IMG/VR virus record: IMGVR_UViG_3300031143_000006 | DNA length: 64,000 nucleotides | Strand: one strand, 5' to 3' | Source: a virus | Shown: in pieces, positions 5,753 to 38,027 of the stretch | Numbering within the stretch: the first letter of the stretch is position 1 | Layout: each line of letters opens with the position of its first letter | Translations under genes and position numbers: made by a program | Notes under the pieces: model-generated | What the model was told of the DNA's origin: nothing | What the model saw: the letters and a program-made list of their open reading frames with translations, nothing else | Database searches by the model: none

Positions 5753-5771
5753 ACAAATATAAGATATAACA

Positions 5772-6176: not shown

Positions 6177-6233
6177 TTAAAACATTCCGCGTATCATCGG
6201 AACTATCAACCACATGTGTTGAAACAATCAAAG

Positions 6234-6268: not shown

Positions 6269-6282
6269 AAAAAGATACGTAA

Positions 6283-7097: not shown

Positions 7098-8017
7098 GAA
7101 TAATCGTAACAGGAGGACTTGGATTTATAGGATCATCATTCGTAAACTTACTTAACAGAAGATTACCAAATGATGAGATAGTTATTTTAGATAAAATGAC
7201 ATATGCTGCAAATCCTAATAATATTAAAGTGGCGACAACCCTCATAATGAAAGATATATGTGATGTTGTCGCTGAAGACTTGGGGGACTATGATTACATG
7301 GTTCACTTTGCTGCGGAGAGCCATGTTGATAACTCTATTAAAGACGGTAAACCGTTTATTAGAACTAATGTAGAAGGAACATTCAATCTATTAGAGTGTG
7401 CCAGACAGAACCCTAACTTAAAGAAGTTCATACATATATCAACTGACGAAGTATACGGAGATATGGCAGATATTGGTTTATTAGCGGAAGCTAACGAATC
7501 TTTCGGACTAACAGGATCTTCATACTATTCAGCATCAAAAGCTGCTAGTGATTTATTAGTTGAAGCATGTGGAAGGACGTTTGGATTACCGTATTTAATT
7601 ACAAGAACATGTAATAATTATGGAGAACACCAGAACGAAGAGAAATTCATTCCAAAGATAATGAAATCCATAGCAAATGATTTAACCATTCCAGTTTATG
7701 GAGATGGTAGACAGGTTAGAGAATGGATCGACACTGAAGATAACGTCCAATTAATTTACGAATTAATGTTATCTGATATGGAAGGAGAAGTATATAATAT
7801 CGGAAGTGGAGAAAAGTATGAGAATATAGAGATCATTAATATGATAGGAGAAATGTTAGGAAAGACTCCTAAGTTTGAATTCGTAGAAGATAGATTAGGT
7901 CATGATAAAAGATATGCATTAGATTCTACTAAAGTTAGGGAAGTATTCTCAGATTGGGAAACATTATCATTCAAAGAATTTTTATTGGAACAAATAAATG
8001 CATTAAAGAACAAATAA
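7094..8017 (+). CDS. rmlB: NDP-sugar 4,6-dehydratase of the dTDP-glucose 4,6-dehydratase (RmlB) type
   Basis: Matches: TGGLGFIGS Rossmann motif, AAESHVDNS, HISTDEVYGD, YYSASKAASD (YxxxK), CNNYGE and GHDKRYALD. These line up along the length with E. coli RmlB. Confidence 0.7.
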   Translation: MRIIVTGGLGFIGSSFVNLLNRRLPNDEIVILDKMTYAANPNNIKVATTLIMKDICDVVAEDLGDYDYMVHFAAESHVDNSIKDGKPFIRTNVEGTFNLLECARQNPNLKKFIHISTDEVYGDMADIGLLAEANESFGLTGSSYYSASKAASDLLVEACGRTFGLPYLITRTCNNYGEHQNEEKFIPKIMKSIANDLTIPVYGDGRQVREWIDTEDNVQLIYELMLSDMEGEVYNIGSGEKYENIEIINMIGEMLGKTPKFEFVEDRLGHDKRYALDSTKVREVFSDWETLSFKEFLLEQINALKNK

Positions 8018-8041
8018 ATGCAATTGTTAATAACTTTTATA

Positions 8042-8080
8042 AAATAAGTGAGTCAGGATTTTTCTGGTTCACTTTTTTTG
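8042..8080 (+). terminator. terminator-like hairpin followed by a T7 tract
   Basis: aagtgagtcagg-attttt-ctggttcactt then ttttttt. Confidence 0.35.
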
Positions 8081-8098
8081 TTTATATTTACTTATAAC
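8081..8098 (+). promoter_or_regulatory. conserved promoter-like element, copy 1 (TTATATTTACTTATAAC)
   Basis: One of 8 near-identical motif copies. It lies 18 nt upstream of the ATG at 8117. Confidence 0.5.
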
Positions 8099-8116
8099 TA
8101 ATAAACAACATATATT

Positions 8117-8536
8117 ATGATGAAAGTACAAGATTTAAAAGAAGGAGATATTGTTAACATGGATCCTAATAATATCAATGGAGATATTGTTTTAATTACA
8201 GGTAAATTGATAAGATACAACGGTATGAATAAATACCTTATGGAAGTTGAAGGTACTGACATGTTAATTGACGGTGAAACTACTGTCAATTTAATAGAAA
8301 GCAATTATACTCCTAAATCTGAACAAGATAGATTTAATGAGATAATGAATACTAAGGAATATTTAACGCAAGAGGAATATGACTTTTGTTTTGGTGTTGA
8401 TGGGTCTATTAGGATTGATACTTCATATGTCGGTAATAACGGTGAAACTCGATTGGGTGTTTATTTGAATTTAAGACTTTACTCAGAACATGATGAAGAA
8501 ATATATGACGGTGATGATTGTAACAATATGTACTAA
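8117..8536 (+). CDS. hypothetical protein (139 aa)
   Basis: ORF downstream of a conserved promoter motif. Confidence 0.35.
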   Translation: MMKVQDLKEGDIVNMDPNNINGDIVLITGKLIRYNGMNKYLMEVEGTDMLIDGETTVNLIESNYTPKSEQDRFNEIMNTKEYLTQEEYDFCFGVDGSIRIDTSYVGNNGETRLGVYLNLRLYSEHDEEIYDGDDCNNMY

Positions 8537-8593
8537 TTGTTAATAACTTTGTGAAAACAGTTGCACAAAAGTTTTTTTATATGACATAAAATG

Positions 8594-8611
8594 CTTATAT
8601 TTACTTATAAC
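8594..8611 (+). promoter_or_regulatory. conserved promoter-like element, copy 2
   Basis: CTTATATTTACTTATAAC, 16 nt upstream of the ATG at 8628. Confidence 0.5.
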
Positions 8612-8627
8612 TAATAAACTAAAAGAT

Positions 8628-8969
8628 ATGCCATTCATTACTAAAGATCAAATTACTACTAAAAGAAAACAATTAAAAGCTGCACTTCCACAGTATAAGC
8701 TTTCAGTAACAAACAAACACTTCTCGGGAATTAACGTAGCAATCATAGAGGGACCTAACGATCTTGGACATGAATACAATCAATTGAACGAAAATTGTGC
8801 CGATTGGTATAATGCAGAAGTTCAATCTATATTATCTACAATAATGCCAATATTAAACGAAGGAAAAGGAGCTTCAACTGAAGACGGTGATTACGGAATG
8901 ATTCCAGATTTTTACACATGGGTCCAGATTGGAAAATGGGACAAGCCATATATTTTAAAGAATAAATAA
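8628..8969 (+). CDS. hypothetical protein (113 aa)
   Basis: ORF downstream of a conserved promoter motif. Confidence 0.35.
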   Translation: MPFITKDQITTKRKQLKAALPQYKLSVTNKHFSGINVAIIEGPNDLGHEYNQLNENCADWYNAEVQSILSTIMPILNEGKGASTEDGDYGMIPDFYTWVQIGKWDKPYILKNK

Positions 8970-8972
8970 ATT

Positions 8973-9119
8973 ATGACAGATGAAGAAACAATAGCACTGC
9001 TAGAAAAAGAAGCAGAAGATTTAAAGTACAGAGATCCTATTGATACTACACAATGGGCATATAACGAAGGAATAGAAGATTTAATAATTAAATTCAGTAA
9101 TAAACTAAAAATAAACTAA
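8973..9119 (+). CDS. small hypothetical protein (48 aa), not in the ORF track
   Basis: ATG..TAA ORF that fills the gap between neighbouring genes. Confidence 0.2.
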   Translation: MTDEETIALLEKEAEDLKYRDPIDTTQWAYNEGIEDLIIKFSNKLKIN

Positions 9120-9124
9120 AAACT

Positions 9125-9325
9125 ATGGCAATCAACTACAAACATCATTGGGAAAAGAATCCAGTACTTAGCAGAACATTAACAAACAAAGAAGATTTCG
9201 ATGCTGTAAACAAGAAAGCTCTTGCTAAGAATGAGAAAGAAACAGTATTTCCATCGTATATTATGATGGATGGAGTTCCTCACAAAATGACAAAGGACGG
9301 ATGGGTTGCTTTTACTAAAATGTAA
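9125..9325 (+). CDS. hypothetical protein (66 aa)
   Basis: ORF. Confidence 0.3.
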   Translation: MAINYKHHWEKNPVLSRTLTNKEDFDAVNKKALAKNEKETVFPSYIMMDGVPHKMTKDGWVAFTKM

Positions 9326-9366
9326 ACAAATCCATTTAATAGAGTATAAGAATCAAACACAAATTT

Positions 9367-9636
9367 ATGAGGAGTATTTTAGAAGAAGCAAATGATATAG
9401 TAAACAATCGTAGCGAAGAAGCAGATAGATCTTACGGACCTTTTTCAGAAGGAATGGACAGAGCCGCTATGATTTTTCAAGGAATGACAGGGCACGAAGT
9501 AACGGGTGCAGATATGTTTAAAGCACTAGTAGCACTTAAATTCTCTAGGGAATCTTATAATCACAAGAAGGATAATTTATTAGATGCAGTAGCATACATA
9601 CAAGGATTAGAAAATTACGTTAACGAAAAAGGATAA
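9367..9636 (+). CDS. hypothetical protein (89 aa)
   Basis: ORF. Confidence 0.3.
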   Translation: MRSILEEANDIVNNRSEEADRSYGPFSEGMDRAAMIFQGMTGHEVTGADMFKALVALKFSRESYNHKKDNLLDAVAYIQGLENYVNEKG

Positions 9637-9637
9637 C

Positions 9638-10666
9638 ATGAAAGTAGCAATCACATCAGTTTTTTCTAACTTGACATACAATAAAAAGAATCATAGAGGT
9701 TTGGAGATTGTATATTTTAAACAATTGTTAGAAGAAAACAATTACGAAGTAGATCTTATAGGAAAGAAAGGACGCAACACCGCAGATTTAGATTTCTATG
9801 TAGATTACAAAGACGCTAAATGGGATGAATATGATGCAATCTTTATTCAATTAAGTACTGCTAACTTCTTCGGAGGTAAAGTTGGAGACCATACAGAATC
9901 TGTCGCTAGAGAAATAGCTGGATATGGCGGAAAGATCTTCACTCTCGTGAATGATCCTCGTATTGATTTCTTGAATCCAGTAGAAAAATTGAAGAGATTC
10001 AATCTAATCCAAGATCTTGAATCTGAGTGGTCCGATGTGATTGAGAATGCAACCTACTTATTCCCTGGTAAAGATATTAGTAAATTCTTAGGAAGAACAC
10101 CTAAAAACTGGAAACAATTAGACTGGTTCACTTATATGTTCAAGCAAAGAATGTCTAGTAATATGACAAAACCAACAAACTCTTTATTCGACTTCGACAC
10201 ACCTAAAAAAGAAAATGATTTAATTTATTATGGTGATAATCGCGCAGCATTTAGAGAGAAGCAAATTAGAAAGTACTTTCCAGATAGCGAAAACAATTTA
10301 CTAATAGGATATAAAACTAAAAAAGTAAATGCACCTTTTGTAAAGAAGATGGAACACTCTGTTTTATTAGATACAATTTCAAAAAGTAAAGCAAGTTTAA
10401 TTATAGGAGACGCAGAACACTTAGATAATGTAATAACATACAGGTTCTATGAAACTATGGCATCTGATTGTCTTGCTGCAATTCAAATAGAATACGATCC
10501 AAACAAAGAATTAATTAGTGATCCGGTTTTACGTGATATACTATATGTAAAATCAAAGTCTGATGTTGAGAAGTTAATAAGTTCTTACTCAGAAGATTTA
10601 ATTTCACGACAAAAGAAAGAATTAGAAAACATTTTCAATAATCTTGATATAACCTTTAAAATATAA
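9638..10666 (+). CDS. DNA beta-glucosyltransferase-like glycosyltransferase (T4 Bgt family, GT-B fold)
   Basis: 'MKVAITSVFSN', 'ANFFGGK', 'IYYGDNRAAFRE' and 'SLIIGDAEHLDNVITYRFYETMASD' align with T4 beta-glucosyltransferase at 'MKIAIINMGNN', 'NFFGGK', 'IYGGSFRSGQRE' and 'ALIIGDKNYNDNFITLRVWETMASD'. The T4 sequence is from memory. Confidence 0.6.
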   Translation: MKVAITSVFSNLTYNKKNHRGLEIVYFKQLLEENNYEVDLIGKKGRNTADLDFYVDYKDAKWDEYDAIFIQLSTANFFGGKVGDHTESVAREIAGYGGKIFTLVNDPRIDFLNPVEKLKRFNLIQDLESEWSDVIENATYLFPGKDISKFLGRTPKNWKQLDWFTYMFKQRMSSNMTKPTNSLFDFDTPKKENDLIYYGDNRAAFREKQIRKYFPDSENNLLIGYKTKKVNAPFVKKMEHSVLLDTISKSKASLIIGDAEHLDNVITYRFYETMASDCLAAIQIEYDPNKELISDPVLRDILYVKSKSDVEKLISSYSEDLISRQKKELENIFNNLDITFKI

Positions 10667-10669
10667 CAA

Positions 10670-11137
10670 ATGGCAAATATAGACAATGAATGTAAAGATC
10701 TAGAAGTAAAAGATTTTTACACAAACTCAACAACACATTTAGCGGACATCATGGAAAACCAAAAAAAGATGCAAGAGCAGACTTATGGTTTTAACTTTGA
10801 AGACATGTCAATACGAGAAGTAATGGATTTTTGGCATGTTAATACACATGCACTAGTCGATGAAATTCATGAAATGACTGACGCACTTGGAGGTATTAAA
10901 GATGGTTCTGGAAACGCAGTATGGAAATACTGGAAAAAAGACTTTAAGAAATATGATACAATGAAAGTATCAGATCTTTCTGAAGGAGATAAAAAAGAAC
11001 TGTATATGGAATGGGTAGATATTTTACACTTCTTTATGAATTATGCATCCTCAATTGGATTAGATGCAAAAACTGCTTTTAATTACTACTTCGCAAAAGC
11101 TGAAGAGAATGTTCAGAGGCAGAAACGCAATTATTAA
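10670..11137 (+). CDS. MazG-like nucleoside triphosphate pyrophosphohydrolase. It may be a dCTPase/dUTPase analogous to T4 gp56.
   Basis: All-alpha protein of ~155 aa with 'EIHEMTDALGG' and 'ELYMEWVDILHF', typical of MazG/dimeric dUTPase EExxE-type motifs. Confidence 0.5.
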   Translation: MANIDNECKDLEVKDFYTNSTTHLADIMENQKKMQEQTYGFNFEDMSIREVMDFWHVNTHALVDEIHEMTDALGGIKDGSGNAVWKYWKKDFKKYDTMKVSDLSEGDKKELYMEWVDILHFFMNYASSIGLDAKTAFNYYFAKAEENVQRQKRNY

Positions 11138-11188
11138 TTAAAATTGTCATAATGGGAAAGGTTCTCATTTACCTTTGATATATAATGT

Positions 11189-12067
11189 ATGAAGAAAGCA
11201 TTTATATATCAGTGGATTAACAAAATTAATAATAAGAAATATATTGGATCTCACATTGGAGTGCCTGAAGACAATTATACTGGCTCAGGCACTTACTTTA
11301 AGAACGCATATCTTAAAAATCCAGAATCATTCACTAGAGTTATTTTAGAAGTAATAGAAAGTGAAGACATACATTCGGAAATAAGAATTCTTGAAGAAAG
11401 TTATTTAAATAAAGTAGATGCTGCAAATAGCGTTGAATATTATAACATAACTAATAGATACTACGGAGGAGATACTTATTCAGGACTTAGTACTGAAGAC
11501 AAGGCAAAAATGATTAAAGGTTGGAGCGAATCTGGAAGATTAGACAGATTACATAATCCACAGAAGTATATTGAATTAAAGAGAAAACAAAGTATCGCAC
11601 AGAGAATTACAGGAAAGAATGTTTATCAATTTAGTAAAGATGGTTATTTGTTAAATGAGTATGATTGTTTAGAAGTAGCAGCAAATAAAACCAATACATC
11701 TAAAGGTAACTTACATAGTGCGCTGAATGAATCTAGAAATACCGCAGGAGGATTCCGATGGTCTTATAGTAAAAAACCTAATGATTTGATACCAGTTAAA
11801 CCTAGGGTATATTCTAAAACAGGAAAACAAAAGAATCCAAGTGGAAAAACAAATAAAATATTCACACAAGTATTACAATATGACTTAGAGAATAATTTAT
11901 TAAGAACTTGGAATAGTAGAAACGAAATTGAAGAAGAATTAGGTATTAGCAAAGGTATGATTAACCATGCACTTAATAACAAAGTAAAGAAAACCGGAGA
12001 ATATAAAGGTTTTATTTGGAAAAAAGGTAAACAAATCACAATTGTAGAATATAATAACAAATCTTAA
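11189..12067 (+). CDS. GIY-YIG homing endonuclease (I-TevI/Seg-like) with C-terminal NUMOD-type DNA-binding modules
   Basis: The N-terminal 'IYQWINKINNKKYIGS...G...Y' is the GIY-YIG motif. The C-terminus has repeated 'GNLHSALNESRNTAGGFRW' / 'ISKGMINHALNN' modules. Confidence 0.7.
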   Translation: MKKAFIYQWINKINNKKYIGSHIGVPEDNYTGSGTYFKNAYLKNPESFTRVILEVIESEDIHSEIRILEESYLNKVDAANSVEYYNITNRYYGGDTYSGLSTEDKAKMIKGWSESGRLDRLHNPQKYIELKRKQSIAQRITGKNVYQFSKDGYLLNEYDCLEVAANKTNTSKGNLHSALNESRNTAGGFRWSYSKKPNDLIPVKPRVYSKTGKQKNPSGKTNKIFTQVLQYDLENNLLRTWNSRNEIEEELGISKGMINHALNNKVKKTGEYKGFIWKKGKQITIVEYNNKS

Positions 12068-12077
12068 AAATACATTA

Positions 12078-13475
12078 ATGATATTAGATATTGAGCAAAG
12101 AGACAAGGACGTAATTGTATCGTATTACGATAAAGAAGGAAAAGTTGCATATAAACAATATCCAATAGCACAATATCAGAATTGGTATATTTGTGGTGAA
12201 AAAGAAAAAGGAGTAAGTAAGGAATATACAAATTGGGATGGCCGCCCTGTTAAATTAGGATACGGTCGTCAATTTAATAAGTTTTCTCTTAATTACTTCA
12301 TTGATGGTTTACCGGAAAAAGATCGTGAAGAGATCTTAGCATATAACTTGCCAAAGACATATTTCGTAGATATTGAAACAGAAATTGTTGATGGTTTTCC
12401 AAAAGCAGAAGAAGCGAAAACAAGAATCTTATCATTCTCAATTATTACACCTGATCGTAAGGCAATCGTTTTAGGATTAGAAGATATGGCCCCTGATAAA
12501 ATTCAAAAGATCGAAGATGATACTAACGAATATTTTAAAGACTTTGATCAAGATTGGGAATTTAAATACCATAAGTTCAAGAGCGAGTATGATATGGTTT
12601 ATACTTTCTTAATGAAGTTCTTACCCAAGTTCCCTATGATGACTGGTTGGAATTTTATAAACTATGACTGGCAATATATCGTAAACAGAAGTAAAATATT
12701 ACAGATAGATATTACTGAAGTTGGTATGACGGGGAAAGTTGATAGAAACGACAGTAGACCTTTGCATATCGGAATCTTAGATTACATGCAACTGTATGAC
12801 AAATACGATCGTAGTGTTAAAGTGAAAGAATCTAATTCACTCGATTACGTATCAGGTCAAGTTTTAAATGTTAAAAAAATAAAGTATACTGGGGGATTAC
12901 AAGATCTATACAGAGATAACTTTGTTAAATACATTTATTATAATGTAGTCGATTCAGTATTGGTATATTATATAGACCAGAAACTTAAATCAATGGAAGT
13001 TCTTTTAACATTGGCAAATATTACAAAGATGCCTCTTTATAAAGCAGCTTCGCCAGTGGCAGTTACAGAATCCCTAATGGCTAGGAAATTAGCAGAACAA
13101 GGAATGCGAATTGGAACTGAACAAAAGGAAGACTTTGAAAAAAGCACACAATACGCAGGAGCTTATGTTAAAGAACCATTAGTTGGATATTATGAAGGAG
13201 TAACGGCATTTGATTTTGCTTCCCTATATCCTTCAATAATGAGACAATTTAATATATCACCAGATGCATATATTGAACAAGTTAAGAAACACGAAATAAA
13301 AGAGAGAAGAAAGGATAATGAAGTAATTGTATGTGATAATGGCGTTGTATATTCAAAAGAAGATTCTGTTCTTAAGAAAATACTTTCAGATTTATATAAT
13401 CAACGTGTGGAATACAAAGATGAGTCATATAAATACTTTACTAAAGCTGATAATCTCAAAAAAAGATTAAAATAA
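12078..13475 (+). CDS. family-B DNA polymerase, N-terminal cistron (3'-5' exonuclease plus palm motif A)
   Basis: Contains 'YFVDIETE' (Exo I) and 'DFASLYPSIM' (PolB motif A DxxSLYPS). The ORF ends ~60 aa after motif A. Confidence 0.75.
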   Translation: MILDIEQRDKDVIVSYYDKEGKVAYKQYPIAQYQNWYICGEKEKGVSKEYTNWDGRPVKLGYGRQFNKFSLNYFIDGLPEKDREEILAYNLPKTYFVDIETEIVDGFPKAEEAKTRILSFSIITPDRKAIVLGLEDMAPDKIQKIEDDTNEYFKDFDQDWEFKYHKFKSEYDMVYTFLMKFLPKFPMMTGWNFINYDWQYIVNRSKILQIDITEVGMTGKVDRNDSRPLHIGILDYMQLYDKYDRSVKVKESNSLDYVSGQVLNVKKIKYTGGLQDLYRDNFVKYIYYNVVDSVLVYYIDQKLKSMEVLLTLANITKMPLYKAASPVAVTESLMARKLAEQGMRIGTEQKEDFEKSTQYAGAYVKEPLVGYYEGVTAFDFASLYPSIMRQFNISPDAYIEQVKKHEIKERRKDNEVIVCDNGVVYSKEDSVLKKILSDLYNQRVEYKDESYKYFTKADNLKKRLK

Positions 13476-13484
13476 ATATAACCT

Positions 13485-14465
13485 ATGAAAAACAATATTT
13501 TCGAAAAGAGGGTAAATATTCTACCATATGAATACCCATCGCTATTAGCATATAAAGACGCTATTAGACACTCATACTGGATTCATACTGAATTTAATTT
13601 CACAACCGACATTGATGATTTTAAAACTAAAATAACAGAACCAGAACGTGAAGTAATTAAAAGATCTATGTTAGCAATTGCACAGATCGAAGTTAGTGTT
13701 AAAACATTTTGGGCAGATCTTTATAAAAGAATGCCAATTACAGAAATAGGAGATGTTGGAATGACATTTGCAGAATCTGAAGTTAGACATAAAGATGCGT
13801 ATGCACAGTTACTTAGAATTTTAGGACTTGAAGAAGAGTTTGAACATGTTATTGAGATTCCTGCAATTAAGGACAGAATAGCATACCTAACAAAATATCT
13901 TGATGGAACTAGAAGCAAGGATAACAGAATGTACACCAAATCAGTACTGTTATTTTCATTGTTTATAGAGCATGTTAGTTTATTTAGTCAGTTTTTAATC
14001 ATGATGTCTTTCAATAAAGATAGGAACTTATTTAAGGGAATTTCTAATGTAGTTGAAGCAACTTCAAAAGAGGAAGAAATTCACGGAAATTTCGGAGCAG
14101 AACTTATTAACATTATTAAATCAGAAAATCCCGAATGGTTTGATGCAGAGTTTGAAAAGGTTATTGATTCAGCATGCAAGAAAGCATATTTAGCAGAGGT
14201 TAAGATTTTAGATTGGATCTTTGAAAAAGGAGAACTTAGTTTTTTATCTAAAGACACTATTAAAAACTTCATACAAAACAGATTCAACAACTCGTTACAA
14301 AGAATTGGGATGAAGCCAGTATTTGAAGTAGATTTCACAGAAATCGAAAAAACATTATGGTTTGACGTGGAGATTCTTTCAACTAAAGAAGGGGATTTCT
14401 TTTACAAAAAATCAATAGATTATAATAAAAAATCAAAATCAATAACCGAGGATGATTTATTCTAA
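13485..14465 (+). CDS. nrdB: ribonucleotide reductase class I beta subunit
   Basis: Ferritin-like di-iron motifs: 'ESEVRHKDAYAQLL', 'FIEHVSLFSQF' and 'EEEIHGNFGAELI'. Confidence 0.7.
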   Translation: MKNNIFEKRVNILPYEYPSLLAYKDAIRHSYWIHTEFNFTTDIDDFKTKITEPEREVIKRSMLAIAQIEVSVKTFWADLYKRMPITEIGDVGMTFAESEVRHKDAYAQLLRILGLEEEFEHVIEIPAIKDRIAYLTKYLDGTRSKDNRMYTKSVLLFSLFIEHVSLFSQFLIMMSFNKDRNLFKGISNVVEATSKEEEIHGNFGAELINIIKSENPEWFDAEFEKVIDSACKKAYLAEVKILDWIFEKGELSFLSKDTIKNFIQNRFNNSLQRIGMKPVFEVDFTEIEKTLWFDVEILSTKEGDFFYKKSIDYNKKSKSITEDDLF

Positions 14466-14515
14466 AGAATAATATTTTTAATTTAAAACCAAACAAAAAT
14501 AACAGACAAATTTAA

Positions 14516-16141
14516 ATGGATTACGAAAAAAATTATTGGCTAAACGAAGACAGTCGAACATTCTTAAATAGAGGTTACATTTCAGAATCTCCAGAGCAAC
14601 GAATCAAAGACGTTGCAAATACAGCAGAACATTACTTAAAAATTGAAGGATTCGCAAAGAAATTTGAAGACTATATGACTAGAGGTTTTTATAGTTTATC
14701 AACACCGGTTTGGATTAACTTTGGAAAAGATAAAGGATTACCAGTTAGTTGTTACGGATCAAACGTTGATGATACGTTAGATAGTATTTTAAACGCAAGT
14801 AGAGAAATTGGAATGATGTCCAAATACGGTGGAGGAACTTCTGCATATTTAGGTAACATTAGAGCAAGAGGAACAGTTATTTCAACAGGAGGAACAGCAG
14901 ATGGACCTGTTCATTACGCTAGGATGTATGATACTACAGTTGATGTATGTAAACAATCTGAAGCTAGAAGAGGGGCATGTGCTGCATGGCTACCGGTTGA
15001 ACATAATGATATTTTAGAATTCTTAGATATCGGAACAGATGGTAACCCTATTCAGAATTTACAATACGGAGTAACAGTTACTGATAAGTGGATTCAAGAA
15101 ATGAAAGATGGCGATGTATCTAAGCGTAAGATATGGGCTAAAGTTATTCAAAGAAGAAATGAATTTGGATTTCCATATATAATGTTTAAAGATAATTCAA
15201 ATAACAATTCACCATATAAAGAATTAGGACTTGAAATTACAGCATCTAATTTATGTAGTGAAATACAATTACCAACAGATTCTTTTAATTCATTCGTATG
15301 TTGTTTAGGTTCTATTAACCTTTTACACTGGGATGAAATTAAAAAGACAGATGCAATCGAAACTTACGTATTGTTCTTAAACGCAGTGATGGATGAATTC
15401 ATTAAAAAATCAGGAGCATTACCTGGAATGCAAAGAGCACATAGATTCGCAGAACAGCATAGGGCATTAGGATTAGGAGTTCTTGGATATCATTCATTAT
15501 TTCAATCTAAATTAATAGCATTCGATTCTTTACAATCAAAGGGATTAAACCACGATATATTCTCAACACTTCAAGAAAGAAGTGAAAAGGCATCAAGATG
15601 GTTACATGATGAAAGAGGTTATAGATCTATTAGAGATGGTTATGCAAATACAACTTTAAACGCAATAGCACCAACTAAATCTAGTTCTTTTATATTAGGT
15701 CAAGTTTCAATGGGAATCGAACCTATCAAATCTAATTATTTTATTAAGGATTTAGCGAAATCTAAAACCATTTATAAGAATCCATTTCTTATAGAGGAAT
15801 TAAATAAATATGATTTAAATACAACAGATGTTTGGGAAGGAATTCTTAAAAGAGATGGAAGTGTTCAGCACTTAGATTTCCCAACTAAAGAAGTTTTTAA
15901 ATCGTTTGTGGAAATTACACCAAAGGAAATAGTTTTACAAGCAGCACAAAGACAGAAGTTTATAGATCAATCACAATCTTTAAATTTAATGATACACCCT
16001 AGCGTTCCAGCAAAAGATATTAATCAATTATATTTATTTGCCCACGAAGAAGGAGTAAAAACTTTATACTATCAATTTAGTCAAAGTTCAGCTCAATCAT
16101 TTGCAAGAGATATCCTAGACTGCGCATCCTGTGAAGGATAA
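14516..16141 (+). CDS. nrdA: ribonucleotide reductase alpha subunit (compact, 541 aa)
   Basis: 'GGGTSAYLGNIRARGTVISTGG', 'EARRGACAAW', the active-site 'ASNLCSEIQLP' and a C-terminal Cys pair 'CASCEG'. Confidence 0.7.
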   Translation: MDYEKNYWLNEDSRTFLNRGYISESPEQRIKDVANTAEHYLKIEGFAKKFEDYMTRGFYSLSTPVWINFGKDKGLPVSCYGSNVDDTLDSILNASREIGMMSKYGGGTSAYLGNIRARGTVISTGGTADGPVHYARMYDTTVDVCKQSEARRGACAAWLPVEHNDILEFLDIGTDGNPIQNLQYGVTVTDKWIQEMKDGDVSKRKIWAKVIQRRNEFGFPYIMFKDNSNNNSPYKELGLEITASNLCSEIQLPTDSFNSFVCCLGSINLLHWDEIKKTDAIETYVLFLNAVMDEFIKKSGALPGMQRAHRFAEQHRALGLGVLGYHSLFQSKLIAFDSLQSKGLNHDIFSTLQERSEKASRWLHDERGYRSIRDGYANTTLNAIAPTKSSSFILGQVSMGIEPIKSNYFIKDLAKSKTIYKNPFLIEELNKYDLNTTDVWEGILKRDGSVQHLDFPTKEVFKSFVEITPKEIVLQAAQRQKFIDQSQSLNLMIHPSVPAKDINQLYLFAHEEGVKTLYYQFSQSSAQSFARDILDCASCEG

Positions 16142-16199
16142 CAGTTAAGAAACGGTGGTTTGAATACCACTCTTAGGACCGAAACTAGTTTTCGGATTA

Positions 16200-16237
16200 G
16201 ATGCCAGGGGTTCGCTACTTCCTGGCATCACTTTTTA
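16200..16237 (+). terminator. intrinsic terminator (9-bp stem gatgccagg/cctggcatc, then ACTTTTTA)
   Basis: Hairpin followed by a T tract immediately after nrdA. Two smaller hairpins precede it at 16155-16198. Confidence 0.55.
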
Positions 16238-16310
16238 GTTAGGAATAATATCTTTGATTAATTAATGAAACTTTATGTAAATTCTCGTTATAATACCTAC
16301 AAATAAAATA

Positions 16311-17090
16311 TTGTATTATAAATCCAAAAGAAACATGAAAATCACAATTAAAAAAGTAGATCAAACGAATTTCATCAACTTCATCAATAGATTGAAGGTA
16401 ATTGATTCATTCGTTTATTTTAAGATTAAAGATGGTATCGTTCAAGCATCAGCTTACTTACCACAAAGAGATGCTGTAAAGCACCACAGACTTCCGGTTA
16501 GTCAATTATTTCAAATTGAAGAAGGAACAATCACAACAACCAAAGAACTTAAAGTTGCTTTCTTTGATGCACAGAAATTAACAGATGCATTCAAGCAATT
16601 CGAGTATGATTCTATTCAAGGTGAAATTGAATTCATTGAGAATGACGAAGATTTCGTAGCATCTAGCTTCCGTATCTTTAATGACGAATTAGAAATTAAA
16701 TTAGCTTGTTCTGAACCATCATTAGGATATAAAGATCTTACGGATTCTCAAATCGCAACTATTTTCAATGTAGAAGATGCAAGTTTTAAATTTGACATGG
16801 ATTACACTACATTAAACAAAGTTAAATCACTTTTTGGATTAGATAAAGAAGAAACATTCTCTATCGAAGCAAATGGAAAAGGAGTTAAATTAACAGGTAA
16901 CACTTACAATATGTTAGTTACACCGGATTATGAAGGTACTGCAGGTAAAAAAGTTACATTATTCAAAAAATATTTAAATCTATTAGACAAAGAAGACTAT
17001 ACAGCGAATGTATTAGATAATCGTGTTGTATTGAGATCAAATGACTCAGAGACATTATTAACTATTGCAACTTGCCAAACCGCTGAATAA
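16311..17090 (+). CDS. putative sliding clamp (gp45-like). The true start may be the Met at 16335.
   Basis: Size ~250 aa. The N-terminal 'KITIKKVDQTNFINFINRL' resembles T4 gp45 'KLSKDTTALLKNFATIN'. The gene sits between the RNR and polymerase genes. Confidence 0.4.
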   Translation: MYYKSKRNMKITIKKVDQTNFINFINRLKVIDSFVYFKIKDGIVQASAYLPQRDAVKHHRLPVSQLFQIEEGTITTTKELKVAFFDAQKLTDAFKQFEYDSIQGEIEFIENDEDFVASSFRIFNDELEIKLACSEPSLGYKDLTDSQIATIFNVEDASFKFDMDYTTLNKVKSLFGLDKEETFSIEANGKGVKLTGNTYNMLVTPDYEGTAGKKVTLFKKYLNLLDKEDYTANVLDNRVVLRSNDSETLLTIATCQTAE

Positions 17091-17097
17091 ATAAAAC

Positions 17098-18300
17098 ATG
17101 ACTGATATAGAACAATTAATAGAGAAACCAGAAAACGAACTTAGCGTTGAAGAAACGACAGTATTGATAGCACATTACGAACAGATGTCTGCTAAATATA
17201 CTGCATATGAGCAAGCTGTCAAAGTAACGTTAAACTCGATTTATGGTGCATTTGGAAATAAATGGTTTCATTTCTTTGATATAGAAATTGCAGAGTCAAT
17301 TACCTTACAAGGTCAATCTGCTATTTTATATTCTGAAAAGATACTTAATAAGTATTTTCAAGAATTCTGGCCAAAGGATACTGCAGCTCACGAGCATTTT
17401 AATATTAAAGTAAAAGGAAGGTTAGTTAGACCATCAGTTGTTTATATTGACACAGATTCATGTTATGTTCAGTTTGAAGAAATGTATGAATCTATTGAAT
17501 GGTTAGGGCCAGACGAGCTTTCAATAGATAAATTCATTATGGAGTTGTATAATTTTAGAATTAAAGATTATATATCAAAATGTATGCAGAAATATGCAGA
17601 AGTAACTAATACAGAAAACTTCTTATATTTTGATATGGAAACAATAGCATACTCTGGAATATGGTTAGCTAAGAAAAAATACTTGCAGAATATCGCGTGG
17701 GAAGATAAACTTGATATTGATGATAGATACCCTTCTCTTAAGAAGATTAAAACTATCGGATTCGATACGATACAGAGTTCTACACCGGCGCTTGCACGTA
17801 AGCATTTAACAGAGGCACTTCAATTAGTACTTTCTGAGAAACCAACAGCAGATCTTTTAAAGAAGCTTGTTGAATATCTTAAGAAATGTAAGAAGGAATT
17901 CAGACTTGCAGATATAGACCAAATTGCGTTTAACAAAAGAACGAACAACATCGAGAAATATATTGTAGATGATACCATCGAATTCCAGATTGGACTTAAA
18001 TGTCCTCCTAATGTAAGAGCTGCTGGATTCTACAATTTCTTAATGAATACCAATCCTAAGTACAAGAACAAGTATAAGATGATAGGTAACGGAGAAAAGT
18101 TAAAACTATATAATTGTAAACATCATGTATCAGACATGTTCGCATATATGCCAGGTGATCACCCTTATGAGATTGCGCCTGAGGTTGATTATGAAATTCA
18201 ATTTGAAAAAAGTGTAATCGATCCTTTGAATAGGGTATTAAAAGCTGTAGGTTTACAACTACTAAATAGAAACTTAATTTACTCAACATCATTATTTTAA
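17098..18300 (+). CDS. family-B DNA polymerase, C-terminal cistron (motifs B and C, thumb)
   Basis: 'KVTLNSIYGAFG' matches motif B (KxxxNSxYG). 'VYIDTDS' matches motif C. Confidence 0.75.
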   Translation: MTDIEQLIEKPENELSVEETTVLIAHYEQMSAKYTAYEQAVKVTLNSIYGAFGNKWFHFFDIEIAESITLQGQSAILYSEKILNKYFQEFWPKDTAAHEHFNIKVKGRLVRPSVVYIDTDSCYVQFEEMYESIEWLGPDELSIDKFIMELYNFRIKDYISKCMQKYAEVTNTENFLYFDMETIAYSGIWLAKKKYLQNIAWEDKLDIDDRYPSLKKIKTIGFDTIQSSTPALARKHLTEALQLVLSEKPTADLLKKLVEYLKKCKKEFRLADIDQIAFNKRTNNIEKYIVDDTIEFQIGLKCPPNVRAAGFYNFLMNTNPKYKNKYKMIGNGEKLKLYNCKHHVSDMFAYMPGDHPYEIAPEVDYEIQFEKSVIDPLNRVLKAVGLQLLNRNLIYSTSLF

Positions 18301-18495: not shown

Positions 18496-18679
18496 AAAAC
18501 TAATGGAAGATTTAACAGCTGAACAAAAAGAACAGTTGATTGAATATCAAAAAGTGTTTATGAGATTAAAAACTCTAAAAACACAGATGACAGATATACA
18601 AGAAGAAACAACAGATCTTCTTGCAATGCTCGGTAAAATGAGAGTAAAGGATAAAAATAAAAAAGAAAACAATGGCTAA
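18479..18679 (+). CDS. hypothetical protein (66 aa)
   Basis: ORF overlapping its neighbours by a few nt. Confidence 0.3.
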   Translation: MKIDPKKLMEDLTAEQKEQLIEYQKVFMRLKTLKTQMTDIQEETTDLLAMLGKMRVKDKNKKENNG

Positions 18680-19787
18680 AAAAGATTTTACATTTGGCGA
18701 TTTAAATAAGCAACTAGCAGATTTAAATCCACTAGGATCCGTTATGGATAAATCTAGTTTCAGTGAAGTTACTGAATGGATTCATACAGGGAACTATCAT
18801 TTAAATGCGTGTGTATCAGGTTCATTATTCGGCGGATGGCCTAATAATAGATCTTGTTCAGTTGCAGGTCCTTCAGGTACTGGGAAAACATTCCTTACAT
18901 TGAATTCAGTTAGAGAGGCAATCAACATGGGTTATCATATAATCTATTATGATTCAGAAGCTGCTGTTGACAAAGAACAGATGATTAAGTTTGGTATTGA
19001 TATTACTAAAGTAAATTATCAACCAATGAATACAGTTCAAGATTTCAGAACATCTATTACTACAATTACTCAAAAGATGCAAGAGATCAAGCATAATGGC
19101 GGGAAGATTCCTAAAATCATGATTATCTTAGATTCTGCAGGTAACTTAGCAACTAGAAAAGAAATTGATGATGCTGCATCTGGTTCTGAAAAATCAGATA
19201 TGACTCGTTCTAAAATTCTTAAATCAATCTTTAGAATTATAATGACACCTTTAGCGGATCTTAAGATTCCATTCATTTTTACAAATCACACGTACCAGTC
19301 ACAGTCTTTTATTCCAATGCAAATTGCAGGTGGAGGAACAGGTCCTGAATATGCTGCATCGATTGTATTAATGTTAAACAAAGCACAGTTAAAAGACGGT
19401 GCAGATAAAGTAGGTATTATTGTTACGGCAAAACCAACCAAAAATAGATTTGCAAAACCAACCCCTATTAAATTCCACCTAAACTTTAGTGAAGGTATGA
19501 ATCCTTATGTTGGATTAGAACAATATGCAACATGGGATATTTGTGGAATTACTAAAGGAACTATTGAAAAAGGAGTTAAAACTCCTAAAGCAACAGCAAG
19601 AGGATGGATTTGCGATCACTTAGATGCAACCGTTCCTAATAAGGAATTCTTTACTGAGAAAGTATTTACAAGAGAGGTTTTAGAGAAAATTGAAAAACAC
19701 ATCAAACCAATATTTAATTACAATTCTGATTCATCAACCATGGATATAGAGGGAATGTTAGATGATATTGAAGATACTGACGAATAA
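18672..19787 (+). CDS. uvsX: RecA-family recombinase UvsX
   Basis: Walker A 'GPSGTGKTF'. 'LDSAGNLATRKE', 'SDMTRSKILKSIFRI' and 'GGGTGPEYAAS' align along the length with T4 UvsX. Confidence 0.8.
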   Translation: MAKKDFTFGDLNKQLADLNPLGSVMDKSSFSEVTEWIHTGNYHLNACVSGSLFGGWPNNRSCSVAGPSGTGKTFLTLNSVREAINMGYHIIYYDSEAAVDKEQMIKFGIDITKVNYQPMNTVQDFRTSITTITQKMQEIKHNGGKIPKIMIILDSAGNLATRKEIDDAASGSEKSDMTRSKILKSIFRIIMTPLADLKIPFIFTNHTYQSQSFIPMQIAGGGTGPEYAASIVLMLNKAQLKDGADKVGIIVTAKPTKNRFAKPTPIKFHLNFSEGMNPYVGLEQYATWDICGITKGTIEKGVKTPKATARGWICDHLDATVPNKEFFTEKVFTREVLEKIEKHIKPIFNYNSDSSTMDIEGMLDDIEDTDE

Positions 19788-20098
19788 TGAAAGTGGACGT
19801 TCATTCAATAGTTGATGACAAACTACCAATAAAATATATACTAGGCATTCAGGATCAGTTAGAAGCTTTTCCTGATGCTTATGATATTTTATACATATTC
19901 ATCAACGAAGCTGTAAGAAGGCCAGACAGACAAAAGGAAACATTTACTAAGCATGCTTTAATGAGATACCATTCAAAGGGTAACCATAAAAATGCAGAAG
20001 AAGGTTTAAAAAGAGCAATGCAATTAGGTTTAATTGAACAAGTTAAATTTGATGAAGGCAAGGAAACATACGAAATAAAAATAAACCCATACACATGA
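19787..20098 (+). CDS. hypothetical protein (103 aa)
   Basis: ORF. Confidence 0.3.
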   Translation: MKVDVHSIVDDKLPIKYILGIQDQLEAFPDAYDILYIFINEAVRRPDRQKETFTKHALMRYHSKGNHKNAEEGLKRAMQLGLIEQVKFDEGKETYEIKINPYT

Positions 20099-20667
20099 TA
20101 GCAGTATTTGACGATTTCATAAAAGATGAAAATCTAATTAAAGACATTCAAAATGATCCTAATTTCTACATACCAACAGGATATTACAAATACTGGAAAG
20201 GATGGTGGAATAAAGAACCAGAAACAGTTAAACAAAGGTTGATACAATATATATGGAAAGAACATCTTCCAATTAAATTAAATGTATCAATTGACGGATT
20301 CGAACATTGGACTGGGTTACAAATTGCTGATTCAACGGATGGTAGACGAAACTATTTAGAATTACATTTAGATGATGATGTTGCATATAGAAAGGAAACA
20401 GGAAATAGAATGTTCCCTTTATTAGGATGCGTATACTATCCCCCTGGTTTTGAATTCGAAGGCGGAGATCTTCATATCTATACAGATGGGGAAGAAAACT
20501 CGCCAGAGGTAATCAAAACAAAAGCAAACAGATTAGTTATATTTAATCCAGGTGAATTCGTTCACGGAGTATCTGAAGTAACATCAGGAACAAGAGGAGC
20601 AATTGCAATTAATATATGGTCAACAGAGCCATGGTCAGTTGGTCAAGGACATATTGTGTTAGAATAG
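20095..20667 (+). CDS. 2OG-Fe(II) oxygenase superfamily protein (P4H/PhyH-like)
   Basis: 'LHLDDD' ... 'VHGV' ... 'RGAI' is compatible with the HxD...H...R 2-His-1-carboxylate/2OG-binding arrangement in a DSBH fold. Confidence 0.4.
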   Translation: MIAVFDDFIKDENLIKDIQNDPNFYIPTGYYKYWKGWWNKEPETVKQRLIQYIWKEHLPIKLNVSIDGFEHWTGLQIADSTDGRRNYLELHLDDDVAYRKETGNRMFPLLGCVYYPPGFEFEGGDLHIYTDGEENSPEVIKTKANRLVIFNPGEFVHGVSEVTSGTRGAIAINIWSTEPWSVGQGHIVLE

Positions 20668-37076: not shown

Positions 37077-38027
37077 ATGATTCACGCACTATTTACAGAA
37101 AAATACAGACCCAAAAACCTAGAAGATTTGATTTTACCAGAAAGGGTAATGTCGAAATTCAAAGATGGTTTATCGCAAAACATATTACTTGCAGGATCTC
37201 CTGGTACTGGTAAGACTTCAACTGCTAAAGCCATAGTGCAGCAGTTTAATTTACCATACCTTTATATTAATGCATCGACGGATACTTCAGTTGATGTTAT
37301 TAGAACACGAATAACAGATTTCTGTTCAACAATGTCTATATTAGATGATAGAGACAAATTTAAAGTAGTTATATTAGATGAGGTTGATGGAGTATCTGAC
37401 CAGTTCTTTAAAGCATTAAGAGCAACGATGGAGACTTTCGCATCAAACTCTAGATTTATTGCAACATGTAATTACATTAATAAATTACCAGATCCGATTC
37501 TTTCAAGATTCGAAGTAATTAATTTTGATTTTGATAAATCTGAAGAAACAGAATTAACAAAGAAATATATCAGAAGAGTATATGATATTTGTGGAAAAGA
37601 AGGAATGACAATTGAAAAACCAGCATTGGTTGAATTCGTTAAACGTAACTTTCCAGATTTAAGAACTACTCTTAATAAATTACAAGGATATAAAACACAA
37701 GGAACTACTAATATAACAGTAGCGGACGTTAAGAAATTCAATTCAGTCTATAAAGATGTATTTGAATTAATATTTAATGAAACAGATCCAGTAAAGAACT
37801 ATCAGCAGATTGTTGGAGAGTATTCAAATAGAGTTGATGATGTACTACAAACGCTAGGAGATGAATTTATACAATACATCCAGGCTGAAAAACAATCAGC
37901 GGTTAGATTTATTCCACAAATTGCAGTTACTGTAGCAAAACATCAAGCTCAACGTAACCTGGTAATCGATCAAGTCATTACCCTTTTATCATGCGTATAT
38001 TCCTTACAAGAAATAGTTAGACAATAA
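37077..38027 (+). CDS. clamp loader large subunit (T4 gp44 homolog, RFC-like AAA+)
   Basis: 'EKYRPKNL', Walker A 'GSPGTGKTS', 'ILDEVDG' and the sensor motif 'SRF'. Confidence 0.8.
   Translation: MIHALFTEKYRPKNLEDLILPERVMSKFKDGLSQNILLAGSPGTGKTSTAKAIVQQFNLPYLYINASTDTSVDVIRTRITDFCSTMSILDDRDKFKVVILDEVDGVSDQFFKALRATMETFASNSRFIATCNYINKLPDPILSRFEVINFDFDKSEETELTKKYIRRVYDICGKEGMTIEKPALVEFVKRNFPDLRTTLNKLQGYKTQGTTNITVADVKKFNSVYKDVFELIFNETDPVKNYQQIVGEYSNRVDDVLQTLGDEFIQYIQAEKQSAVRFIPQIAVTVAKHQAQRNLVIDQVITLLSCVYSLQEIVRQ

Follow-up and report, generated by a model that had tools for sequence, protein, structure and literature searches.

In the 64,000-nucleotide (64-kb) stretch of DNA analysed here (the window), which comes from an uncultured marine T4-like phage, the replicative DNA polymerase is encoded by two separate genes, polN and polC, which lie 3.6 kb apart (gap, 3,622 nt) and are split at the tip of the "fingers" domain. 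The open reading frame coordinates given in an earlier reading of this DNA (the original prediction) were all borne out, and the nrdB, nrdA, terminator, and sliding clamp that it placed between the halves were found there by Pfam searches, a hairpin scan, and fold prediction (Table 1).

Table 1. Features of the split polymerase locus and of the genes around it
Feature	Position	Strand	Content or basis
NTP pyrophosphohydrolase (MazG/dUTPase_2-like)	10670..11137	+	phrog_173, E 9.8e-16
Free-standing GIY-YIG/NUMOD1 homing-endonuclease cassette (ORF 11189-12067) with its own TATAAT-like element	11138..12077	+	Pfam, PHROG
polN	12078..13475	+	N-terminal domain, 3'-5' exonuclease (Exo I-III), palm motif A, first finger helix; 465 aa, 54.8 kDa
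nrdB, ribonucleotide reductase small subunit	13485..14465	+	Pfam Ribonuc_red_sm, E 4.6e-58
nrdA, ribonucleotide reductase large subunit, short form	14516..16141	+	Pfam Ribonuc_red_lgC, E 9.6e-94; phrog_84, E 1.2e-141
Three-hairpin RNA-like element, directly 3' of nrdA, conserved	16152..16240	+	Terminator scan and relatives
Promoter-like site TGAAAC-N17-TATAAT, upstream of clamp gene	16266..16294	+	Conserved in relatives
Sliding clamp, gp45/PCNA-like, two domains, 251 aa, pI 4.9	16335..17090	+	Predicted fold
polC, C-terminal polymerase half	17098..18300	+	Second finger helix with motif B, palm motif C, KKKY, thumb, C-terminal tail; 400 aa, 46.9 kDa
uvsX-like recombinase	18672..19787	+	phrog_97, E 8.7e-59
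Clamp-loader large subunit, gp44-like	37077..38027	+	phrog_168, E 1.6e-73

The catalytic motifs are divided between the two genes as predicted, and neither ORF alone holds all of them. Exo I (FVDIE), Exo II (NFINYD), Exo III (YNVVD), and motif A (DFASLYPS) are at residues 96, 192, 288, and 379 of polN, which ends 79 aa past motif A rather than the roughly 60 aa first estimated, and motif B (KVTLNSIYG), motif C (YIDTDS, residue 116), and KKKY (residue 192) are in polC. Pfam matches in polN were to DNA_pol_B_exo1 and to positions 17 to 137 of the DNA_pol_B profile, of which polC matched positions 150 to 237, and the PHROG of full-length polymerases (phrog_262) was matched at positions 96 to 496 by polN and 487 to 843 by polC. 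Pairwise alignments to RB69 gp43 spanned residues 114 to 487 for polN and 533 to 819 for polC. In a joint alignment, the last residue of polN corresponded to RB69 residue 504 and the first residue of polC to residue 505; the two ORFs cover the polymerase with no overlap and no missing motif. The fingertip loop is shorter in polN/polC than in RB69 gp43 in this alignment. Each half is also matched end to end by a PHROG family of its own (phrog_2062, 502 positions; phrog_1918, 382 positions). AlphaFold, run without an alignment on polN and polC as a fused chain, gave a pLDDT of 33.7, too low to model the interface. The C terminus of polC homologues is conserved (...L-F), and this tail is a putative clamp-binding peptide.

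The last hairpin of the element that follows nrdA (positions 16200 to 16229) precedes a T run and resembles an intrinsic terminator. The three-hairpin element is present as a single copy in the window and has 33 sequence variants among the 66 sources (of 92) in which it was detected, with compensatory changes in hairpins 1 and 2; a comparison with Rfam returned no family. The promoter-like motif occurs five times in the window (0.27 expected), always on the plus strand and outside the listed ORFs, and two of the other copies are just before the helicase and clamp-loader genes, the latter at 37029. Because polN is upstream of the terminator and the clamp gene and polC are after the promoter-like site, the halves are probably in adjacent but separate transcription units, as judged from consensus matches and conservation. 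The clamp gene ends 7 nt before polC and probably starts at ATG 16335 rather than TTG 16311, because its homologues have 250 to 251 aa. The presence of a gp44-like clamp loader in the window supports the identification of this ORF as a canonical loaded clamp. No ATP-cone match was found in nrdA, and the nrdB gene is one of two very different cassettes found among relatives.

The window is metagenome-type sequence for which megablast gave no close match among cultured phages, and a split polymerase in such sequence could be an assembly artefact or a decaying pseudogene. However, an identical polN protein was found on 18 contigs, and the four places among the matches listed, from four samples (JGI, ENA), had the same gene order, which indicates that the window is not chimeric. 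All 80 related IMG/VR loci were consistent with the gene order of the window, and every one that reached far enough had the order NTP pyrophosphohydrolase-polN-nrdB-nrdA-(0.15 to 4.2 kb)-clamp-polC-uvsX, in which the uvsX-like gene is the conserved downstream neighbour of polC. The polN ORF had 465 to 469 aa in at least 120 protein clusters (90% clusters), and dN/dS was 0.03 to 0.05 for polN, 0.025 to 0.046 for polC, and 0.03 to 0.06 across polN, the clamp gene, and polC. With all of the catalytic motifs intact as well, the probability of artefact or decay is negligible. The split is real and under purifying selection.

Relatives at 30 to 45% identity share the split, and 112 of the 121 near-complete representatives of 50%-identity clusters related to polC are stand-alone C halves with a common start point. 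The arrangement is inherited and does not reflect a recent event. Full-length relatives share a clade and a gene neighbourhood with split ones, which suggests that the two states are interchangeable. These relatives are scattered among the split ones in a rough NJ tree, and the split may be ancestral or may have arisen several times.

In a relative with an unsplit polymerase, the gene order is nrdB-nrdA-NUDIX-clamp-pol-uvsX. Therefore, nrdB-nrdA-clamp is probably the ordinary upstream neighbour of the polymerase rather than an insert, as the original prediction had it, and the displaced piece is probably polN, which lies upstream of its usual neighbours.

The homing endonuclease gene (HEG) upstream of polN is real (NUMOD1, E 6e-10; phrog_314 homing endonuclease, E 1.5e-18; Pfam GIY-YIG, 20.2 bits, under the 22.6 cut-off), but its description as lying at the junction of the halves was misleading. 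The NTP pyrophosphohydrolase gene adjoins polN upstream in all 80 related loci, and in relatives that lack the HEG its stop codon overlaps the polN start (TAATG); the cassette is inserted exactly between the two. A recent double-strand break by this GIY-YIG enzyme, followed by repair, might have broken a contiguous polymerase gene and placed nrdB-nrdA-clamp inside it, and the proximity of the HEG is consistent with such a rearrangement. HEGs are known to split T4-like genes, as mobE has done to the nrdA gene of Aeh1 and mobA to gene 60 (PMC2988022), an HNH-like ORF lies between nrdB and nrdA in the related locus L090, and TnpB lies between the clamp-like ORF and polC in phage MA9V-2. However, the HEG is 1.4 kb from the split, and apart from the window just 2 of the 80 related loci contained it (L064 and, in partial form, L004), whereas the polymerase is split in all loci that extend far enough, whether or not they have the HEG, and in relatives as distant as those above. 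A HEG with 61% identity is at the same spot in L090 and L091. The window and L064 are ∼100% identical over the tract from 11100 to 12099, although the flanks are 81 to 95% identical (differing by 5 to 19%), and the HEG therefore arrived long after the split. The HEG is recently mobile, free-standing, and unrelated to the polymerase split, and it is very unlikely that it caused the rearrangement.

Another explanation is that polN and polC carry the remnant of an intein or split intein, with protein trans-splicing linking the halves now or in the past. Nanoarchaeum has a PolB of the split-intein type, and the C halves of some relatives carry mini-inteins (P0250, P0258, P0263, and P0283; Pfam Intein_splicing, E 1e-11 to 2e-15). 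However, these inteins follow motif C, at about residue 120 in the C half, and are away from the split, and neither polN nor polC had a Pfam intein match. The halves tile RB69 gp43 with no added sequence at the end of polN or the start of polC and with the shorter fingertip loop, and a lost intein is thus highly improbable. The fingertip is an insertion hotspot in T4-like gp43, according to PMC3061061, citing Petrov et al.; the original prediction was right in this respect but not in calling it a hotspot for inteins.

Of the three explanations first proposed, only a trans-assembling split polymerase survives. We consider it likely (probability, about 0.85) that the locus encodes a T4 gp43-type family-B replicative polymerase of an uncultured marine T4-like myovirus as two stably inherited, fingertip-cut genes whose products form a 1:1 heterodimer. 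The polN protein supplies the N-terminal domain, the proofreading exonuclease, the catalytic aspartate of motif A, and the first finger helix. The other finger helix, which carries motif B, comes from polC, as do the aspartates of motif C, the thumb, and a C-terminal tail that may bind the clamp. The two proteins would be held together non-covalently where their antiparallel finger helices pair and where the palm sheet is completed, giving a composite active site, and the partners of the heterodimer would be the sliding clamp encoded next to polC and the clamp loader whose gene is at a greater distance. Apparently, polN is expressed with the NTP pyrophosphatase and nrdB-nrdA before the structured terminator, and the clamp gene and polC lie after the conserved promoter-like site. 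There is experimental precedent for assembly from two chains: in Aeromonas phage 25, the two parts of gp43 co-purify as an active enzyme (PMC2988022), and fragments of Pfu polymerase that is cut near the fingertip, when made separately, assemble into a 1:1 complex whose kinetics match those of the wild type (PMC3061061). The window covers 64 kb of a genome that may reach about 130 to 235 kb, and a second, intact polymerase may be encoded beyond the window.

The split might also be kept not neutrally but because it changes the properties or regulation of the enzyme, such as by relaxing nucleotide selection for hypermodified dNTPs or by allowing the dosage of each half to be controlled separately. 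The fingertip split in Pfu made the enzyme more tolerant of a bulky gamma-phosphate substituent (PMC3061061). Candidate DNA-modification genes are near the polymerase, namely a beta-glucosyltransferase-like gene (9638-10666), the NTP pyrophosphatase, a 2OG-Fe(II) oxygenase (20095-20667), and sugar-nucleotide enzymes (942-8017); in addition, the split state dominates a large clade, and a terminator and promoter pair separates the halves. However, full-length relatives persist in the same clade and neighbourhood, and the link to substrate range is hypothetical. T4 uses modified bases with an unsplit gp43. A functional role for the split seems unlikely.

Fingertip-split PolB enzymes are already known from other phages, and the window provides a new example rather than a new principle. 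Bicistronic gp43 is described by Petrov et al. 2006/2010 (as cited in PMC3061061 and PMC2988022) in Aeromonas phages 44RR2.8t, 25, 31, and 65 and Acinetobacter phage 133. The expectation that such 43A/43B halves are close together was incomplete: their spacing is given as '2 bp to 3 Kb' (PMC3061061), the halves are separated by 2.9 kb and 8 ORFs in phage 133, by 2.4 kb in PAU, and by 3.5 kb in MA9V-2, and they are about 13, 100, and 280 kb apart in three huge-phage assemblies. As in the window, the T4-related 43A/43B enzymes are family-B replicative polymerases cut between the two finger helices, with a start codon for each half, and the split sites of PAU, MA9V-2, and 44RR are within 12 residues of that in the window (RB69 512/513 in 44RR compared to 504/505). 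However, the window polymerase has 29% identity to T-even-type gp43 and belongs to a separate, deeply diverged clade on its own tree branch. Its intervening genes are the conserved replication genes nrdB, nrdA, and clamp, rather than small ORFs of unknown function, and, unlike in the 43A/43B phages, a terminator/promoter pair separates the halves. The split is rare and derived in the T-even group but is the majority state in the group of the window.

The closest cultured relatives (31 to 34% identity) are in phage PAU (Sphingomonas/Sphingobacterium; gp105/gp110) and Chryseobacterium phages MA9V-1/-2 (ORF135/ORF138; MA9V2_192/196), which share the fingertip split and the local order polN ... 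clamp-like gene ... polC; their split is not discussed in the deposited annotations or accessible literature. In PAU, gp109 has been recognized as a clamp of the gp45 type 'next to the DNA polymerase' (PMC4889955). Unlike the window, neither has nrdBA between the halves, where PAU has a dUTPase and small ORFs and MA9V-2 has two unknown ORFs and TnpB.

The chimallivirus PhiKZ also has a PolB made of two polypeptides from distant genes, gp82 and gp50 (DNAP-N/DNAP-C), which form a stable, proven 1:1 complex with a composite active site that draws motif A from the N subunit and motif C from the C subunit, and its activity is boosted by the clamp-fold protein Rhc (PMC13648687). However, PhiKZ is cut in a large palm insertion, which leaves both finger helices in the C subunit, and the clamp-like protein that assists it is one RNase H-clamp fusion, which operates without a clamp loader (PMC13648687), whereas the window encodes a plain two-domain clamp and a gp44-like loader. 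Methanothermobacter PolB1/PolB2 and the engineered Pfu enzyme likewise demonstrate that PolB tolerates a two-chain make-up, but the Methanothermobacter enzyme is cut about 83 residues further on, in the palm, and its genes are 85 kb apart, and the Pfu split, near the fingertip as in the window, is artificial (PMC3061061).

The family-B DNA polymerase of the window is encoded in two cistrons, as the original prediction proposed. The exonuclease motifs Exo I FVDIE (residue 96), Exo II NFINYD (192) and Exo III YNVVD (288) are found in polN, the ORF for the N-terminal half, which matched Pfam DNA_pol_B_exo1 (E 4.4e-10) and also contains motif A, DFASLYPS. Motif B (KVTLNSIYG), motif C (YIDTDS) and KKKY are found in polC, the ORF for the C-terminal half. 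PolN and PolC aligned to successive stretches of RB69 gp43 (residues 114-487, E 1.4e-32; residues 533-819, E 5e-25) and of the full-length polymerase family phrog_262 (positions 96-496 and 487-843 of 856), and motif and alignment checks revealed no single ORF with the full set of catalytic motifs. Because these motifs are divided between the two proteins, the active site is expected to require both chains. By its exonuclease motifs, motifs A to C and similarity to gp43, the enzyme belongs to the T4 gp43 type. polN terminates at a TAA codon that is followed two codons later by a second in-frame TAA, and polC begins with its own ATG. PHROGs contains separate families that the two halves match end to end. 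The structure predicted without an alignment for the fused polN+polC chain had a pLDDT of 33.7 and no usable interface.

For four phages with split polymerases (the window, PAU, MA9V-2 and 44RR), the two halves were joined end to end and aligned together with RB69 gp43. The break fell at RB69 residues 504/505 in the window, 508 in MA9V-2, 512/513 in 44RR and 515/516 in PAU, in all four cases within the loop joining two finger helices, and the window loop is shorter than that of RB69. A split intein, or an intein interrupting the gene, might also produce a divided polymerase, and relatives do carry mini-inteins, which follow motif C, near C-half residue 120. However, the joint alignment revealed no surplus sequence at the break relative to RB69, there was no intein Pfam match in polN or polC, and intein blocks were absent from the ends facing the break, which led us to reject this explanation.

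Features of the window and of related loci (positions in nucleotides of the respective sequence)
Genome or locus	Feature	Position	Strand	Remark
Window	Sugar-nucleotide/transferase cluster	942-10666
Window	NTP pyrophosphohydrolase (NTPppase)	10670-11137
Window	Homing endonuclease gene (HEG)	11189-12067
Window	polN	12078-13475	+
Window	nrdB	13485-14465
Window	nrdA	14516-16141
Window	Three-hairpin RNA-like element	16152-16240	+	~90 nt, conserved, 3' of nrdA
Window	Insert hot spot	16240-16265
Window	TGAAAC-N17/18-TATAAT	16266, 20670, 37029, 48298, 52560	+
Window	Clamp ORF	16335-17090
Window	polC	17098-18300	+
Window	uvsX	18672-19787
Window	2OG-Fe(II) oxygenase	20095-20667
Window	gp44-like clamp loader	37077-38027
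L088	nrdB called as two ORFs	11408-12388		119 and 153 aa
L090	HNH-like ORF	12477-13298
L083 (Chryseobacterium phage MA9V-2)	TnpB gene	15693-16859
L079	Interrupted nrdA	12874-15924
L081	Interrupted nrdA	8602-11657
L085 (LR756500)	C half in two ORFs	29721-33121
PAU	gp105 ... gp109 clamp, gp110			Halves 2.4 kb apart
MA9V-2	ORF 192 ... clamp-like ORF, TnpB, ORF 196			Halves 3.5 kb apart
LR756500 (huge phage)	polN ... clamp-polC-uvsX retained			Halves ~13 kb apart
LR745206 (huge phage)	Halves on opposite strands			~100 kb apart
LR756504 (huge phage)	Halves on opposite strands			~280 kb apart

The identical PolN protein was present on 18 contigs. Four of its places, from four JGI and ENA samples, were displayed and had a common gene order; 10 similar places lay outside the displayed set. 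A length of 465 to 469 aa was retained in at least 120 of the 90%-identity clusters among those listed. Ten window genes were mapped to 80 related loci from IMG/VR, in which PolN identity was 80 to 96%. The order NTPppase-polN-nrdB-nrdA-(spacer)-clamp-polC-uvsX was found in every locus of sufficient length, so the arrangement that the original prediction proposed to seek in related phages was indeed there. In comparisons with five relatives dN/dS was 0.03 to 0.05 for polN, 0.04 to 0.06 for the clamp ORF and 0.025 to 0.046 for polC; dS was saturated in part and, for the clamp ORF and polC, undefined against the most distant of the five. The 18 contigs, the 80 loci, the retained length and the low dN/dS rule out an assembly artifact or a decaying gene. 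The two cistrons are independent and stably inherited. On one contig with the identical PolN (L088), nrdB was called as two ORFs, which reflects a sequencing error, a frameshift or a stop variant.

The genes between the halves had been described as an insert into the polymerase gene, which is the wrong word. In the nearest full-length relative (P0251; 869 aa, 44% identical to PolN and 48% to PolC), the order is nrdB-nrdA-NUDIX-clamp-pol-uvsX-...-dnaB-gp47-gp46, with a clamp 38% identical to that of the window (E 1e-63). This order indicates that nrdBA and the clamp gene are normal upstream neighbors of the polymerase, and it is the polN module that lies on the far side of nrdBA-clamp in the window lineage. 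The clamp gene adjoined polC in all relatives examined, and the position of polN was variable; for two relatives, P0252 and P0253, the context was limited to 2.8-kb contigs. In the 462-kb phage LR756500 the C half is found in two ORFs (polC residues 15-188 and 120-400) separated by a 567-aa ORF with a DUF7487 and a restriction-endonuclease-like domain (REase_MTES_1575); this may be a polymerase in three pieces or an inserted nuclease.

The closest database relatives carry the same split. Exhaustive HMMER searching with PolC as the query matched 2,839 of 1.84 billion cluster representatives, 313 of them at E ≤ 1e-30. Among the best 150 of the 2,839, 91 start where PolC starts (71 of these being 360 to 445 aa long) and 10 look full length. 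Near-complete representatives at 50% identity numbered 121, with 112 stand-alone C halves versus 9 full-length forms, which indicates that the split is the usual state in this clade. In a rough neighbor-joining tree without support values the full-length forms were scattered, and the clade was separate from the T-even group. The split may be ancestral, with later re-fusions, or may have occurred repeatedly. Mini-inteins (Pfam Intein_splicing) were observed directly after motif C in four stand-alone C halves (P0250, P0258, P0263 and P0283), and inserts longer than 100 aa are present inside 17 of the 121 near-complete representatives.

The GIY-YIG/NUMOD1 homing endonuclease gene, originally placed at the junction of the split, lies instead at the NTPppase/polN boundary, upstream of polN and outside the interval between the halves. 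Its product matched phrog_314, 'homing endonuclease' (E 1.5e-18), and the DNA-binding module NUMOD1 (39.5 bits; cut-off, 22.8), and contains the sequence FIYQW...KYIGS. A candidate N-terminal GIY-YIG catalytic domain scored 20.2 bits in Pfam, below the cut-off of 22.6. In relatives lacking the gene, the NTPppase stop overlaps the polN start as TAATG. The window has a cassette of ~940 bp exactly at this junction, with ATTAAT at both ends and TATAAT directly ahead of the HEG start. Of the 80 IMG/VR loci screened, only 2 had the HEG (L064 and, in part, L004), and a more distant relative has a 61%-identical HEG at the same spot. Window positions 11100-12099 are ~100% identical to positions 6000-6940 of locus L064, the flanks of which are only 81 to 95% identical, with almost no co-converted flank beside the cassette; the flank identity profile of L064 to the window is that of L003, a locus without the HEG. 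An identical cassette in diverged flanks suggests a recently transferred, free-standing T4 Seg-type HEG (reviewed in PMC2988022), and its patchy occurrence at one constant intergenic position is consistent with such an element. Judged from these sequence comparisons, the HEG is an independent, recently mobile element unconnected to the polymerase split. Relatives have further mobile genes in this region: an HNH-like ORF sits between nrdB and nrdA in L090, and a TnpB gene between the clamp-like ORF and polC in MA9V-2.

The nrdB-nrdA genes occur in two very different cassettes, with ~90% versus ~30%/38% amino acid identity to those of the window. Cassette type is independent of PolN identity, as in L002 versus L003 (both with 96% PolN identity), L006 and others, and the swapped segment is bounded by the 3' end of polN on one side and a conserved RNA element on the other. 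An insert hot spot lies downstream of this element, ahead of the clamp promoter. Relatives have between 0.15 and 4.2 kb from nrdA to the clamp gene, and the variable inserts there make the polN-polC distance vary from 3.6 to ~7.6 kb within the lineage (e.g., L058). In L079 and L081, nrdA is interrupted by ~1.2 kb, and the two matching pieces, residues 1-293 and 247-541, overlap. An intron, an intein or a HEG may have inserted here, comparable to mobE/nrdA of phage Aeh1.

All genes from 10.6 to 19.8 kb are codirectional, in the order NTPppase, HEG, polN, nrdB, nrdA, 193-nt spacer, 251-aa clamp ORF, polC, two small ORFs and uvsX. The polN-nrdB gap is 9 nt, and the clamp gene stops 7 nt ahead of polC. 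The three-hairpin RNA-like element is also present among L002 to L091 (66 of 92 sources, in 33 sequence variants), ~30 nt past the nrdA stop, and its position is constant whichever nrdA cassette precedes it and whatever the size of the insert that follows. Hairpins 1 and 2 have compensatory changes, with double changes in 7 of 10 predicted pairs. Hairpin 3, after which comes a T run, has a constant loop, TTCGCTAC, on wholly different stems, and the element includes an invariant single-stranded motif, TTAGGACCG. Rfam yielded no match for the nrdA-clamp spacer at the gathering threshold or at E ≤ 10. The element might do more than terminate transcription, for example, as an mRNA 3'-end stabilizer or a small RNA. 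A repeated promoter/stem-loop cassette of the PeSL type was also considered for this element but was ruled out, since the window has a single copy of the structured part; the promoter-like motif alone recurs.

That motif, TGAAAC-N17-TATAAT, follows the hairpin element ahead of the clamp gene and is conserved in relatives. With a spacing of 17 or 18 nt it occurs five times in the window (0.27 expected), always on the plus strand and outside the listed ORFs, and three copies immediately precede the genes for the clamp, the helicase and the clamp loader. The phage probably uses this motif as one of its promoter classes. From these signals, (NTPppase)-polN-nrdB-nrdA and clamp-polC would form two adjacent transcription units.

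The 251-aa ORF had no match in Pfam, PHROG or PDB sequences. Its sole sequence link is weak similarity (BLASTP E 1e-4) to PAU gp109, a gp45-like clamp encoded beside the polymerase (Kazlauskas et al., PMC4889955). An AlphaFold model from 13 homologues (pLDDT 69.8) has repeated strand-helix-strand-strand-strand units, as expected for the two or three repeated beta-alpha-beta-beta-beta domains of a clamp. The protein is acidic (pI 4.89), falls in the ~230- to 270-aa range of this clamp class, carries no RNase H part and has a cognate gp44-like loader in the window. By its predicted fold, the protein is assigned as a sliding clamp. Mechanical ORF calling starts the gene at TTG 16311; ATG 16335 is the likely start because gene calls begin there and homologues are 250 to 251 aa long. 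PolC homologues across the clade share a conserved C-terminal tail, ...N-L-x-x-x-x-x-L-F. T4 and RB69 gp43 have a C-terminal clamp-binding peptide, and by analogy the PolC tail may contact the clamp.

The window, the 64 kb of the genome that the analysis covered, contains gp23-, gp20-, gp21-, gp46/47-, gp4-, gp2- and gp44-like genes and encodes a UvsX-like protein, a DnaB-type helicase, terminase and tail sheath, a gene content that points to a T4-like phage as carrier of the split polymerase. Megablast of the 7.1-kb region against 50,697 phage records gave no match, indicating that there is no close cultured relative. The G+C content is ~31%. Start codons without obvious Shine-Dalgarno sequences and the Bacteroidota hosts of cultured relatives hint at a Bacteroidota host. 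The sugar-nucleotide/transferase cluster (cytidylyltransferase-like, nucleotide-sugar epimerase and T4 beta-glucosyltransferase-like genes) and the 2OG-Fe(II) oxygenase flank the replication genes, which suggests that the phage DNA is hypermodified. It is conceivable that the split, as opposed to an accident that is tolerated, is the ancestral and selected state of a very large environmental polymerase clade from T4-like and jumbo phages, kept since two-chain fingers alter nucleotide selection (e.g., of hypermodified dNTPs from the neighboring modification genes), with full-length forms as secondary re-fusions, but we consider this scenario improbable.

Literature searches found no paper on this marine lineage or on the prevalence of the split. 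Three points are new: an abundant uncultured marine lineage is documented to conserve the polN-nrdBA-terminator/promoter-clamp-polC layout, the evidence points to the split as the majority state in its clade, and the neighboring HEG is shown to be independent and recently mobile. The lineage is a well-documented natural case of a replicative family-B polymerase from two genes in different, inferred transcription units, and the few T-even examples greatly understate how common the split is in nature. Annotation pipelines and marker surveys expecting a gp43 of ~900 aa will mishandle or double-count such phages, and PolN and PolC are natural starting material for split-polymerase engineering.

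The fingertip-split gp43 itself was already known, and the window opens no new mechanism. According to the statement in PMC3061061 that cites Petrov et al., five T4-related phages have such splits, with ORFs '2 bp to 3 Kb' apart. In the records that we checked, 43 and 43B of 44RR2.8t are 49 nt apart, and 43A and 43B of Acinetobacter phage 133 are 2.9 kb apart with eight intervening ORFs. The split enzyme of phage 25 copurifies and is active (PMC2988022), separate fragments of Pfu polymerase cut near the fingertip reconstitute (PMC3061061), and PhiKZ DNAP, whose N and C halves are encoded by genes far apart, is a 1:1 complex with a structure at 2.1 Å (PMC13648687). By these precedents PolN and PolC would form an active complex. 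A three-subunit polymerase of the PhiKZ type (DNAP-N, DNAP-C and Rhc) likewise has halves from separate genes, but it was rejected for the window, in which the split is at the fingertip, the clamp lacks RNase H and a loader is present; PhiKZ has another cut site and another clamp-derived partner.
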